The notes beneath the pieces were generated by a model. That model saw only the letters and a program-made list of their open reading frames with translations, was not told the origin of the DNA and searched no databases. DNA of 64,000 nucleotides, from assembly GCA_951406725.2 (NCBI GenBank), contig OX597823.1, positions 62,062,001 through 62,126,000 of the forward strand, written 5' to 3'. Within the stretch, counting starts at the first letter, position 1, and each line of letters begins with the position of its first letter. Shown here piece by piece: positions 3,067 to 61,360 of the stretch. The translations under genes were made by a program, and so were the position numbers. Source of the stretch: Octopus vulgaris. Its lineage: Eukaryota.

Positions 3067-3330
3067 TGTGGAGGCATGTGGCTTAGTGGTTAGGGTGTCA
3101 GTACCATGATCATAAGATTGTGGTTTCAATTCCTGGACTGGGCGATGCATTGTGTTCTTAAGAAAAACACTTCATTTCACATTGCTCCAGTCCACTCAGC
3201 TGGCAAAAATGAGCAACGCTGCGATGGACTGGCATCCTGTCCAGCTGGGGAGCACATATGCCATAGAAATCAGAAAACTGGGCCCATGAGCCTGGCTAGG
3301 CTTTAAAAGGGCGCATTTATTTTATTTATT
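3067..3330 (+). mobile_element. tRNA-derived SINE with 13-bp target-site duplication
   Basis: A-box-like TGGCTTAGTGG, B-box-like GGTTTCAATTCC, internal GATGGACTGGCATCCTGTCCAG and (TTTA)n tail; TAATATATTCATC flanks both sides (3054-3066, 3331-3343). Confidence 0.85.
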
Positions 3331-3973
3331 TAATATATTCATCAATCTGATGCTAACATGGTAAAACTGACGTAAAACAAATGCAAAATACCTTGTCTTT
3401 ATATACAATATCATTTTTGAGGAGAAAAAGGAGCAGCCAGTTTTAGGCATACTATGTTTGAATAAAAGATATGATTACAGCTGAAATGCTCTTGCTTGTA
3501 GGTATTCTGAATCAGTGCTTAACTGATAATAAACAACACTAAAGGGTTTCTTTGTCCCCATGAAATGTACATTGTATGAAATATTTGTGTGATATTGCAG
3601 AATATCTACGCTAGAGGGATATTAGAAATAAAATCTTGAAAACTGGTGATGGTGTGCATCAGTCACAATTAGTTCATAGAAAGTTCATGCAAGATTCCAG
3701 TAAGTTCAGATGTTCTGAAGAATGAAGAATTTGTAGAACCCATGCCAAAGCAGGCATTAGAGCTTGGTGCAGACTTCAGGTTCATCAGTTCATGTCAAAT
3801 TGACTAATCTATGCCAGCATGGAAAATGTTGGACTCATGATTGTTCATCATCAAAGGGTGTTGGACTCATGATTGTAAGAGTGTGGTTTCAGTTGCTAGA
3901 CTGGGTGATATGTTGTGTCCTTGAGCAAAATACTTCATTTCATGTTGCTCCAGTCCACTCCAGTCCACTCAGC

Positions 3974-4368
3974 AGTCTCCTTTAGAGAGACTTAGAAATA
4001 ATAATATTTCTATTTTTGAAAACCAGTGGATGTATTCCATTGAAATTAGGTAAATAATCCTTCAAAGAGATGGTCAGCAGCGACACCTGCTGGGTTCAGC
4101 TACTCTGCATTGATAAAGGGCAAATACCCTGAAACATGTCTGCAGATGCCTGACCAGCAGGGGAAGCGGCTGACCTCCCCTGTTTGAAGGTTATAATGGA
4201 CACAGGTTCGTGTGTCATATAGCTTGCTAGAGGCAATGGCCTCTTGGAGCTAATCAATGGCAGCTTTCATCCTATATTTATGGACTACCATATTAGTTTG
4301 GCAATAACTATTAATATCCAGTACTGCTGCCGTAGTCTCCTTTAGAGAGAGTTAGAAATAATAATATT

Positions 4369-4375
<7 letters not shown>
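3974..4375 (+). mobile_element. Putative retrozyme / PLE-associated element: 360-nt unit plus ~42-nt terminal direct repeat
   Basis: AGTCTCCTTTAGAGAGA(C/G)TTAGAAATAATAATATTTCTATTT at 3974-4015 and 4334-4375 (period 360); internal hammerhead; extensive self-complementarity; no ORF. Confidence 0.7.
4104..4146 (+). ncRNA. Type I minimal hammerhead ribozyme, U3-A8 core variant
   Basis: Stem I TCTGCA(4104-4109)/TGCAGA(4141-4146); core TTGATAA(4110-4116); stem II AGGG-caaata-CCCT; GAAA(4131-4134); palindromic stem III ACATGT; predicted cleavage after GUC at C4140. Confidence 0.82.
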
Positions 4376-4411
<36 letters not shown>

Positions 4412-4413
<2 letters not shown>

Positions 4414-4690
4414 GTAAATGTAATATGTGACAATTATTCGGTAGCCATAATAAAACTCCGAGTTTCGGATGCCAAGGTGGAGATCCACTCTGCCATCTCT
4501 TCATTTATCCGGCCATCAGAAAAATACTATAAAAAATTACTGTTATACAAAGGGAAATTCTCGGCATCCGAAACTCAGAGTTTTATCATGGCTACCGAAT
4601 AATTGTCACATATTACATTTACAGATAAATTCCTCTATTTATATAATATCGAGGTCTCTTTCATTCTTTTGTTGTCTTACTATTTTTATC
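4412..4690. mobile_element. Penelope-like pLTR fragment with inverted duplication and a degenerate hammerhead
   Basis: About 4412-4472 is the reverse complement of about 4563-4624. The minus strand near 4443-4515 reads GCC-GG-ATAA ATGAAGA [long stem II] GAAA CTCGGAG TT TTATTATGGC. Confidence 0.55.
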
Positions 4691-4691
4691 A

Positions 4692-4733
<42 letters not shown>

Positions 4734-4946
4734 TTGTCTCAAGTTGTAGTTGTGGAGTACTCAGCCATTTGTGAGTTAATTTTATTCTCGTGTGATAATG
4801 AAAAGTGAAACTGACAGCCAATATTTGCTGTGTCTATGTATCTATGTATGAATTGTCTCTCTCTCTTTCTCTTCCTTTGTGTCCCACTTCTCTGCTGCTT
4901 TTGATTGTATATGTATCTATGTATCTACTTCTCTTGCGATGTGATA

Positions 4947-5160
4947 AACATTTAAAAACACAAAACAAATGCCGTCACCATTCACTGTCTCTTTCACTTT
5001 TTCTCACTCTCTTTCTTTCTCTCTTACAACCTCTCTGAAACATTTAAAAACACAGAACAAATGCCACTGTCTCTTTCATTCTTTCTCTCATTCTCTTTCT
5101 CTTTTACTTCCCCTCTGAAACACTTAAAAGAACAAAACGAATCCCATCACCACTGATATC
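4947..5160. repeat. Three diverged tandem units of ~80-90 bp (AAACATTTAAAAACACA...CAAATGCC...CACTGTCTC plus CT-rich spacer)
   Basis: Units start near 4947, 5038 and 5118. Confidence 0.7.
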
Positions 5161-8100
5161 TCCTTCACTCTCTCTTTCTCTCTCACTCTCTCTTTCTCTC
5201 TCTCACTCCCCCTCTCTTTCTCTCATATTTCCTCTCTCTCCTCCTCTCTCTCACTTTGCCACTTCAAAGAAGTGTGACGCTCACAACAGGTACGTACAAA
5301 AACAAAAATTTAGCATATTAATATTATTGATTGTAGTGGCGTGCATAATGTTTGCCCACAATGACTGAAGTTAATGTGATGTCTGTGAAGTTAATGTGTT
5401 AAAATACCAGCCACGTGGTCATAAATCCAAACCTTTTTCTTCTATTGTTCTAAGCCCTACACATATATTGTGTTTCGTGAGTAATGAACTTTGTCTGTAT
5501 GGCATTTGGTTTTGCCTGTTGCACTCATATTGCTTTACAACACTTCCCATTGTTACACTTCATGACTGAAGTATCCACTATTGAAAAAGCAATTTTAGTA
5601 GTGTAAAAGAAAAAAATTATATATCAAATAGTAAAAAAAAAAAAAAATTCTATCTTTCAGAAAATTAATAGGAATTTTAGAAATATTTTAACACTTTTCG
5701 TGTCCTTTTTTCCAGTGAAATACATTGCCTTTGTATTTCAATTGACTTAGAAAATAATTGAAGAATTTTGAGAGAGTTAGTAAAGTAACTAATATTTTTT
5801 CTTAAGTTAGTGTTTGAGACCTTAGCAAAAAAGGTCTTATATAAAATCATGATGCAACGTTTGAATTGAAATATGAACTCGTGGGTTTTTTTTTTTTCAG
5901 TATGAGTTGTTGGAATCAGAAATAGTTAATGTTAGCACATAACTCTCAGTTGTTATATTGTATCTTTGGACTCCTGACTTTTAACAGATATTTTTCTTGC
6001 TAGCAAAAGTTATTTCTTTGGAAGGGCTTTTATTTCTTTGGAAGGACTTTTATTTCACCATATACTTTCCTTTTACACCTCTGTATGCAAAAATAAATAA
6101 GAGAGAACTGTAAATCAGAAATATTTCAGCCTTAAAATGTTCTACTGGTGCATCTAACAGAATCTATGTTAGTGCAGAAAACAAGGTTGAGATTCAGTGA
6201 ATTGAACGTTACATTCTGAAATCTACTTTCTTTTCTGAATTCTTTTGCTTAATCCTTCACACTTTTTACTTACTCTCCTCTTCTTCTTTGGTCATGATTC
6301 ATATTAAAAATCTTTTATTCATTTTTCTATCTTTCATATCCACTGCCAAGTAAGAATTTTACTAATTTTTTTTCTAATTTTTTTTATTTTTTAATATAGT
6401 AGTAAATATATAAAATGTATATCTTTTGATCTGAGACAAATTTTCCAGCTTCAATGGTAAGGACAAGATAAGTTTTTATGCTGCCTTAGCAATTGGCCAA
6501 TTATTCACTATGTAATTCTTGCTGTGTTAGCAAGCAAAATCACTTGTATATAGCTTTAATACAACTCTGTGCCCATATATACAACAAATCTATCACACAG
6601 ATTTTCTCAGCAGAATTAAGTCAACAAGATTCGACTTGTTTTCTCAAATATTATGGTAATTAGATTCTTAATTGCTGTGCTGTATTGATACCTTTGCCCT
6701 TGTTTTATTCAAGTAGGAAGTGATGTAGATAATTAGATAAAACATCATATACTTACACACTTGACTGATAATCAATGATAACAACTTGTGTTCAGATAAA
6801 TTGAAAATCGGAAGTGTTTCCAAGGAGTTTATAAAATTCCTCAAAATATATTGATTTACATTTCATAGTTTTTCTATTGTGATTTTTAGTGGTTTTGCTT
6901 GTTAGATATTTTGTTGTTTTTTTTTTAACTTCTTTACTCCTATTGTTTATGTTAATGGGATTTCTCTGGGTCACAAGCTAATATAAATCATAATACTATG
7001 TGCTAAAATGAGTGTTTCAGTGTTGCTTAATCTGGTAGAAATAACAACCTAATTTCCCTCTAATTTCACTTTATTGACATATAGAAAGAAGGACAATTGG
7101 TGTATTCTTGGATACACTGTGTTGGGGAAAAAATAGACTCGATGGTCACAGCTGGAATGGCTTTGTTTGTACTGTCTGTTTAATCAAGGTTGATTTGGTG
7201 CTACACAACAATAACAATAATATTGTACTCAAAATCAGGCTATTTTTATGTGATATACTTATGAAATATTGAAAAAAAATATTTAGTTTAATGTTGCTGC
7301 TGAAATATCATCAAAGGGAAAATATTTTATCTGGTCTGGATTTGACCAAATCAGTTAAGTGTTGGGCAAAATGCCCGCATTTGTAATCATTTATGCTCCA
7401 AGTTCAAAACCCAGCTAGTTTAACATAGTCTTTCATCCTTTTGAGGTTGATAAAGTAGAGTATTAGTGAAGTACTGGGTGTAAATTATTCTTGTCATGCA
7501 CTCAGAATGTTAAGAAAATTGTATCAGAAAAACCTTATGATATCAAAATGGCCAGTATGGAGAAAAATCTTATTGGCAAGTCTCAAAGCATGGTGTAAGA
7601 ACTGCAAGATATTATAATTGTTTACATGTAATATTATCGTTCAAACTTATACAAATTTTAGATCTCATCTAAGCTTTCAAATTTTGTCACTTTCTCTCTA
7701 TATGCAAGTGTAATACTCAAAGCAGCAAGAATTACTAACAATAATTGTTGTTGTAAGGTTAAATCTACATGTTTTAAATAATATAGTGGCCAGAAGTAGG
7801 TACCAGATCTTCTAACATCATACACCAGCTTCATATATTCTAGGAGATGACAACAGGAAACCATTACACAAATGGCTCTCAATCTTTTTGACTCTGTAAC
7901 ATACCTGGGATAAAATAAAATATTACTGGTACAATTTGTATTGAAAGTTTAATCCTTTGTTTGTCCAAAGCATTTTCATAAGTTTGTCTTAATGTCCATG
8001 CTTGATTTTAAACTTTTATTTAGTCCTTGTTTCATATGTTCTGAGTAATATGAAGCTTACTTTTCATAAGTACCATCTTACTCTGGTGGTTGAAAAAATT

Positions 8101-60339: not shown

Positions 60340-61360
60340 CATCATCATCATTTAACGTCCGTTGTTCATGGGTTGGATGGTTTGACTGGGCTAGCACACT
60401 GGAAGGCTGCACCAGGCTGCAGTCTGATTTAGTATGGTTTTCTACAGCTGGATGCTCTTCTTAATGCCAACCACTCCTAAAATGTTATGAGTGCTTTTAT
60501 ATGCCACCAGCATGGGTGCCATTTGTGTGACACTGGTATCTGCCATGACTGCGATTTTGCTTGGCTTGATGGTTCTTCTTCTCAAGCACAACATAATGCC
60601 AAAAGTCTTGGTCATTGCCTCCATGAAGCATTCGAAAGGAACTCAGCCACCTCGCCCCCATGAGGCCCACTCAAAATGAACTCAGCCACCTTGCCTCTGT
60701 GACGCCTGCTCAAAAGGAACTCAACCACCTTGCTTTCATGAGGCCCAATGCTCAAAAGAAACTCAGCCACTTTGCCTCCATCAGGCCCAACGTTCAAAGG
60801 TTGATTTTTTTTTTTTTACAATCTGCCAGCACAGGTGCACTTAGCTTGATGGGTCCTCTTAAGCAGAGCACATTACCAAAGGTCTCAGTCACTAGCCATT
60901 GCCTCTGAAATTCAAAGTTTGAAGGTCATGCTTCACTACCTCAGCCCATGTCTTCCTGGGTCTATCTCTAGTACAAGTTCCCTCCACAGTTGGAGATTGG
61001 CACTTCTTTACACAGCTGTCCTTGTCTGTATGCATCACATGACCATACCAGTGCAGTCATCTCCCTTGTACGCCACATCTGATTCCTCTTATGCCTAACT
61101 TTTCTCTCAAGATGCTTACACTCTGTCAAACATGCACACTGACATTGCACATCCAGCAAAGCATACTAGTTTCATTTCTCTCAACTCTGCACATGTCCTC
61201 AGCTGTCATAGCTTATGTTTCACTGCCATGCAGTATAGCTGTTCGCACACAAGCATCAAACAATCTGCCATTCACTTTGAGAGAGAGGCCCTGTGTTGCT
61301 AGCAGGGGTAGGAGTTCTCTGAACTTTCCCCAGCCTAATCTTATTCTCACTGCTATGCTC
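60340..61360 (-). mobile_element. RTE LINE 3' portion (ORF C-terminus, 3' UTR, (ATG)n tail) with internal duplications
   Basis: Minus strand LHWYGHVMHTDKDSCVKKCQSPTVEGTCTRDRPRKTWAEVVKHDLQTL (~60915-61060) is the typical RTE C-terminus (LRWFGHV...GRPRKTW); (CAT)n at 60340. Confidence 0.85.

Follow-up and report, generated by a model that had tools for sequence, protein, structure and literature searches.

A 360-nt hammerhead repeat family of the Octopus vulgaris genome with insertion ends of the Penelope-like type

Introduction

The closest described systems are the animal non-LTR retrozymes. Their RNA circles have already been shown in a mussel, where the repeats measure 350-390 bp (Cervera and de la Pena 2020, PMC7229834, available portion). 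In the accessible text of a 2026 preprint, non-LTR retrozymes were argued to be non-autonomous forms derived from Penelope-like elements (PLEs); no mollusc is present in the vertebrate-retrozyme sample as given in that text (bioRxiv 10.64898/2026.07.22.740005). According to the available part of a 2020 review, the repeats show no motif indicating a partner (PMC7761336). Two questions are at stake, namely what enzyme is responsible for moving animal retrozymes and if a circle serves as the template. PLEs themselves leave a "tail", the stretch between two reverse transcription (RT) start sites, which was termed unique to these elements (PMC11167929).

We analyzed a window of 64,000 nt of the Octopus vulgaris genome (assembly GCA_951406725.2, contig OX597823.1, positions 62,062,001 to 62,126,000), in which a first-pass annotation had proposed a candidate circular-RNA retrozyme; coordinates below are those of the window. 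Our literature search found the family described nowhere, cephalopods included, and paper supplements, Repbase or Dfam could already hold a description. The giant-squid genome paper lists 235 Rfam hammerhead matches, without further analysis.

Results

The insertion occupies positions 3974-4375 of the + strand and consists of one 360-nt unit and 42 nt of the next; it is 5'-truncated, and its 3' end is the family end termed B below. The unit (3974-4333, +) is non-coding and has a GC content of 41.7%. The Met-started frames of the tandem unit reach 40 aa at most, in agreement with the first-pass annotation, which had reported no ORF. Animal non-LTR retrozymes are likewise non-coding, below 50% GC, about 360 bp long and highly paired (available portion of PMC7229834). 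The direct repeat of about 42 nt with a period of exactly 360 that had been reported was recovered at 3974-4015 and 4334-4375, with a length of 42 nt, 98% identity and a start-to-start distance of 360.

At the 5' junction, a dispersed repeat which we take to be SINE-like (3855-3973, +; 80% identity to a copy at 3092-3197) is interrupted, and its remainder is absent from 4376-7000. The 3' junction lies in a (TA)n tract (4371-4411, strand not assigned), the usual target of the family. No target-site duplication was seen at the window copy. The copy is about 7% (6.6-7.1%) away from its nearest sampled relatives and is an old dead end with a single hammerhead, hence it cannot excise a monomer or release a circle itself.

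Other repeats were noted in the window. A second repeat between (TA)n tracts (4391-4692) is built of inverted arms (86 nt, 90%), with additional sequence on just one of the sides; perhaps it is a further inverted insertion of the PLE type that has a tail, and related pieces flank the loci L041, L099, L135, and L165. A 52-nt stretch at 44026-44077 matches unit positions 304-353 at 79% and is possibly an old fragment; a tandem repeat of 39 bp in 4.5 copies is found at 60615-60789.

Folding of the 360-nt unit yielded -125.7 kcal/mol (z -7.4; 0 of 100 shuffles equal) and folding of 4055-4195 a z of -6.2 (0 of 200 shuffles equal), which bears out the earlier statement that much of the unit folds. 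Folded as a circle, the unit reached -123.3 (z -5.6 vs 60 shuffles) and showed no gain in stability over its linear permutations; energy is therefore no argument for a circle. A GC-rich rod (4059-4190, +), indicated by folding and by both-side pair changes between subfamilies, surrounds the hammerhead motif and prolongs helix I, whereas the motif of the local autonomous pLTR described below has no rod. Every paired segment previously listed for the stems of this rod was found in place.

The motif itself is a type I hammerhead (4104-4146, +), recognized by sequence and conservation, and its central position had been noted before; its unusual core had passed without remark. As read from the sequence, helix I (6 bp) is formed by 4104-4109/4141-4146 and followed by the core UUGAUAA (4110-4116), helix II (4 bp) by 4117-4120/4127-4130 with a CAAAUA loop, and GAA by 4131-4133. 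The palindromic ACAUGU (4134-4139, +; ACATGT in the DNA) lies at the 2-bp helix III, and the cut is predicted after C4140, between 4140 and 4141. A type I hammerhead with a 6-bp helix I, a 4-bp helix II, and a short palindromic helix III is also typical of animal non-LTR retrozymes; unlike these, as far as the available portion of the article goes, the octopus family has a U3:A8 core and is known here from DNA sequence alone (PMC7229834). U3:A8 replaces C3:G8 in 140 of 141 sampled pieces. The same covariation was described for the Cercyon PLEs of Schistosoma mansoni, whose hammerheads, unlike those of the unit-length tandem family in octopus, are mostly single, heterogeneous, and PLE-tied (PMC4209133, accessible part). 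An Rfam search returned no hammerhead match at the gathering score, nor at E up to 10. Since the U3:A8 core escapes Rfam, similar families may go overlooked elsewhere.

Pair probabilities were 0.85-1.0 for helices I and II and about 0 for helix III in the monomer. Of 151 pieces, 134 have a palindrome in the six letters of helix III, with three versions by subfamily (ACATGT, ACTAGT, ACGCGT); the palindrome is predicted to pair two hammerheads. Both-side changes were found at 13 of 58 pairs in 30 aligned units, a count that 9 of 500 shuffles also reach, with relatedness uncontrolled. We infer that the RNA structure is selected and, because palindrome and core are kept, that the predicted ribozyme is selected to act as a pair.

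The genome of O. vulgaris contains 1,885 hammerhead-anchored matches (control: 1), and a 17-mer taken close to end A has 2,320 matches (control: 0). Long copies number at least 40 (40 scored of 3,033 candidates), and full units sort into several subfamilies. Adjacent hammerhead pairs number 17 with the older core and 288 in a young subfamily, in which single insertions comprise 5 to 10 units and have normal ends; the largest example is a 3.86-kb insertion with one arm of 10 units and (TA)n flanks. The proposal of a non-coding hammerhead repeat family thus holds, including tandem arrays of up to 10 units. Units within 150-450 bp and tandem dimers to multimers are also found among animal non-LTR retrozymes (available portion of PMC7229834), the window copy corresponding to a monomer. 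Furthermore, 47 contigs of run X5 (organism C) match the stretch at <95% and represent relatives under another organism label.

Insertion ends were determined for 77 insertions with 128 arms, taken in genome order from one contig and anchored beside end A; a hammerhead-anchored sample of 30 arms served as a check by another anchor. Pieces <25-30 nt (self-matches of internal hairpins), duplicate loci, and the segmental duplicate L131 were left out. The 3' ends of the arms fell at A (unit 336-352, mostly 342-344; 4309-4325 of the window, +) in 49 of 128 cases, at B (30-53 of the next unit) in 60, and elsewhere in 19; A and B together hold 109 of 128 arms in two windows spanning 41 of 360 positions. 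The hammerhead-anchored sample gave 15/30 for A and 10/30 for B, i.e., 25/30 for both. Site A is presumably the first RT start, and A and B are 57 nt apart.

The two fixed 3' ends are the tail signature of PLEs. The tail of about 57 nt from A to B (4318-4375, +) contains the direct repeat as its final 42 nt; the window copy ends at B and is truncated 16 nt into the upstream tail, hence the 42-nt repeat, which is tail plus chance 5' truncation. The first-pass annotation had read the longer-than-unit copy as the mark of a circle. This reading has to be amended, since the redundancy taken by itself does not point to a circle: position 4375 is a fixed end of the family, and on the 5' side the copy was cut short at one of numerous places scattered round the unit. 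Tandem or circularly permuted copies with different endpoints had also been named as support to be sought by a genome search: tandem copies exist, but only the 5' ends are spread and the 3' ends are fixed at two sites. Free circular permutation was rejected because of these fixed 3' ends.

None of the 128 arms has its 5' end at the predicted cut (unit 166-170), and 7 vs 4.1 expected lie at unit 163-173 (p 0.12). The 5' truncations gather at unit 200-222 (window 4173-4195, the base of the rod) with 22 of 128 vs 8.7 expected; either the enzyme stalls there, or annealing takes place at a TTCGAA palindrome present in most copies.

Many insertions are head-to-head, with arms unequal in length and joined 5' to 5'. 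When both ends lie at A or B, there is one of each in 53 of 54 insertions (30/31, 19/19, and 6/6 in three samples, two of the 19 being already among the 31); further inverted pairs have an end elsewhere, 12 in the 77-insertion sample and 4 in the second. An (AT)4 was found within 30 nt of 64 of the 109 A/B ends vs 244 of 3,900 background windows (6%), and duplications of at least 9 bp (9-15 bp) at 19 of 105 insertions vs 19 of 400 controls. Duplications >4 bp are also known from animal retrozymes, whereas fixed PLE-type 3' ends with head-to-head arms are not described for retrozymes in the available portion of the same article (PMC7229834). PLE insertions carry the marks seen in this family (bioRxiv 10.1101/2021.04.23.441226 and PMC3846280, accessible parts of both). 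With PLEs the family has in common two 3' ends with a one-sided tail, truncation at the 5' end, incomplete tandems, head-to-head inversion, AT-rich targets, duplications of around 10 bp, and a hammerhead upstream of the start sites; unlike PLEs, the octopus unit has no ORF, and its tail is about 57 nt as compared to 30-40 (PMC11167929 and the same accessible parts).

Inverted arms resemble terminal inverted repeats, and this likeness, together with the lack of an Rfam hammerhead match, would suit a DNA-level satellite or MITE-like repeat in which the hammerhead look is incidental. We regard such an origin as very improbable, given that 5' ends are variable and 3' ends fixed, that unequal arms are joined 5' to 5', and that the fold shows compensatory changes. 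The family is, with high probability, of the retrozyme type and mobilized by PLEs.

Candidate PLE loci were sought with the GIY-YIG profile PF01541; of 6,136 candidates, 150 were scored and 30 fetched. One PLE family has intact ORFs of 781 aa that encode RT plus, at the C terminus, a GIY-YIG domain preceded by a CX4CX2C motif; five copies of this ORF are 0.5-3.5% apart. The motif was assigned to the Neptune and Nematis clades (bioRxiv 10.1101/2021.04.23.441226, available text). Judging by these ORFs, autonomous PLEs of the Neptune/Nematis type have apparently been active recently in the O. vulgaris genome, and vertebrate non-LTR retrozymes likewise occur as monomers, dimers, and multimers beside active PLEs (bioRxiv 10.64898/2026.07.22.740005, accessible text). 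The repeats of the autonomous PLEs contain the motif UUGAUAA...GAAACAUGU; they end at two 3' sites and are flanked by (TA)n. Hammerhead-like motifs occur in other PLE families as well (L076, L077, L081, L082), in part with UUGAUAA and in part with an ACCGGT palindrome. In L091-L096, the sequence downstream of the 781-aa ORF has several motifs which we would call CCAAT-like and TGACGTC, and then a TATA-like box, ahead of the hammerhead motif; they probably form the PLE promoter.

No pLTR homologous to the unit was found in the 30 GIY-YIG loci (150 scored, 6,136 candidates), the likeness being confined to hammerhead core and palindrome; the single match in this search came from another copy of the unit, lying on the other strand. 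Since the autonomous PLE repeats show no other likeness to the unit, this PLE is probably a helper, its parentage being unproven, and a PLE partner is inferred. The octopus link thus consists of the insertion ends, unlike in Xenopus, where 24 of 57 retrozyme families matched known TEs, nearly all of them PLEs (bioRxiv 10.64898/2026.07.22.740005, accessible text).

The unit might instead be a solo or truncated pLTR of an unfound autonomous PLE, with the arrays as by-products. PLE ends and the PLE-type U3:A8 core, as in Cercyon (PMC4209133, accessible part), would agree with this origin, and the search covered 30 GIY-YIG loci only. However, an ORF for RT plus GIY-YIG between pLTRs is absent from the unit and from its in-register upstream sequence, and copies reaching farther 5' have additional unit sequence there, with 10 units at most. 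PLE ORF fragments were present in the fetched flanks of only 4 of 163 family loci, and the 3 inspected are not in pLTR position. A solo pLTR is therefore improbable. In-register continuation into a PLE ORF was found in none of the sampled copies; the first-pass annotation had named an ordinary pLTR and a one-off duplication as ways in which its proposal could fail, and hence neither occurred, the 3' end at 4375 recurring across the family. At L146 (952-1133 and 1863-2147), part of the start of a PLE ORF is joined to unit 208-307, and the joined piece recurs in inverted orientation; it represents a nested insertion or a template switch.

We finally compared variants within and between arrays, whose counts can be blurred by assembly errors and polishing (L228 contains homopolymer indels). 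The units of one array have a common haplotype, and these array-specific variants fit rolling-circle copying of one monomer. Among 30 young insertions, 11 private variant sites occur in all copies of their insertion vs at most 0.4 expected from independent hits, and 107 private sites in one copy; older loci have 17 array-wide private sites vs about 1 expected. Such private variants may come from unsampled source arrays. Stepwise haplotypes were found as well, 19 of them distinct in the 30 young insertions. Older subfamilies gave no fixed difference from the nearest neighbor in 39 of 62 loci, and their within-locus distance was 3.7% vs 3.6% to the nearest locus. In contigs of four runs taken as RNA, joints that go back 360 nt equal the tail overlap, which is present in DNA too.

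The template of the same PLE-mobilized family might also be linear multimer RNA, transcribed from tandem source arrays and left uncleaved; the hammerhead would then be dispensable for copying, and arrays would be homogenized at the DNA level or by self-insertion. Four of the 23 young inverted loci (L231, L232, L233, L234) have between them four sites at which variants are common to both arms in the same unit register only, which fits a multimer template, and the absence of 5' ends at the cut site suits uncleaved RNA as well as a circle. RNA that had not been cleaved was what PLE protein mainly used in vitro, and mutation of the hammerhead did not abolish insertion (PMC11167929). Self-cleavage of the octopus RNA is a prediction made for a non-canonical core, and 8 of 9 Xenopus retrozyme dimers showed no cleavage in vitro (bioRxiv 10.64898/2026.07.22.740005, accessible text). 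However, a register effect is absent overall, as cross-arm divergence in 23 loci was 0.76% in matching and 0.76% in non-matching registers; four other partly shared sites are not register-bound. Furthermore, array-wide private variants and stepwise haplotypes would demand frequent steps from monomer to multimer, and the kept palindrome and core imply a selected ribozyme. We consider linear multimers a plausible but less probable source, and give a circular template an even chance of being the main route.

Discussion

On the features that can be tested in sequence, the family belongs to the animal non-LTR retrozymes as a new member with a predicted ribozyme, a variant core, and unusually clear PLE marks. 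The window element is probably an old, 5'-truncated copy with one hammerhead, likely copied in trans by a PLE reverse transcriptase-endonuclease and possibly from RNA that paired hammerheads had made into a circle. In the cycle that we propose, arrays with at least two hammerheads would be transcribed, and two hammerheads would pair via the palindrome and then cut. The released monomer would be ligated into a circle, which would be stable, as helix III cannot form in a single motif. The PLE protein would nick AT-rich DNA and prime at A, at B, or at the two together, with one site for each target strand; copying would go back round the unit and halt at varied points. For the window copy, it would have started at B and halted after 402 nt.

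In its full form the proposal is tentative, and we put it somewhat short of even: a circular-RNA parasite of 362 nt, active in recent times, whose U3:A8 hammerhead works only as a dimer, and which is spread by rolling-circle reverse transcription through a PLE protein of the Neptune type, with priming of both target strands from two RNA sites. The family has the PLE end signature and young, near-identical arrays, and intact PLE ORFs are present in the same genome; therefore, both the question of the enzyme and that of the template are testable in vitro. The young arrays provide material for such tests, and the rule of one end of each kind in 53 of 54 insertions quantifies how one-sided the PLE tail is. 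If the proposal is true, the 362-nt circular parasite would lend the proposed retrozyme-PLE cycle direct support from a genome, and the one-sided tail of PLEs would be explained as two-site twin priming.
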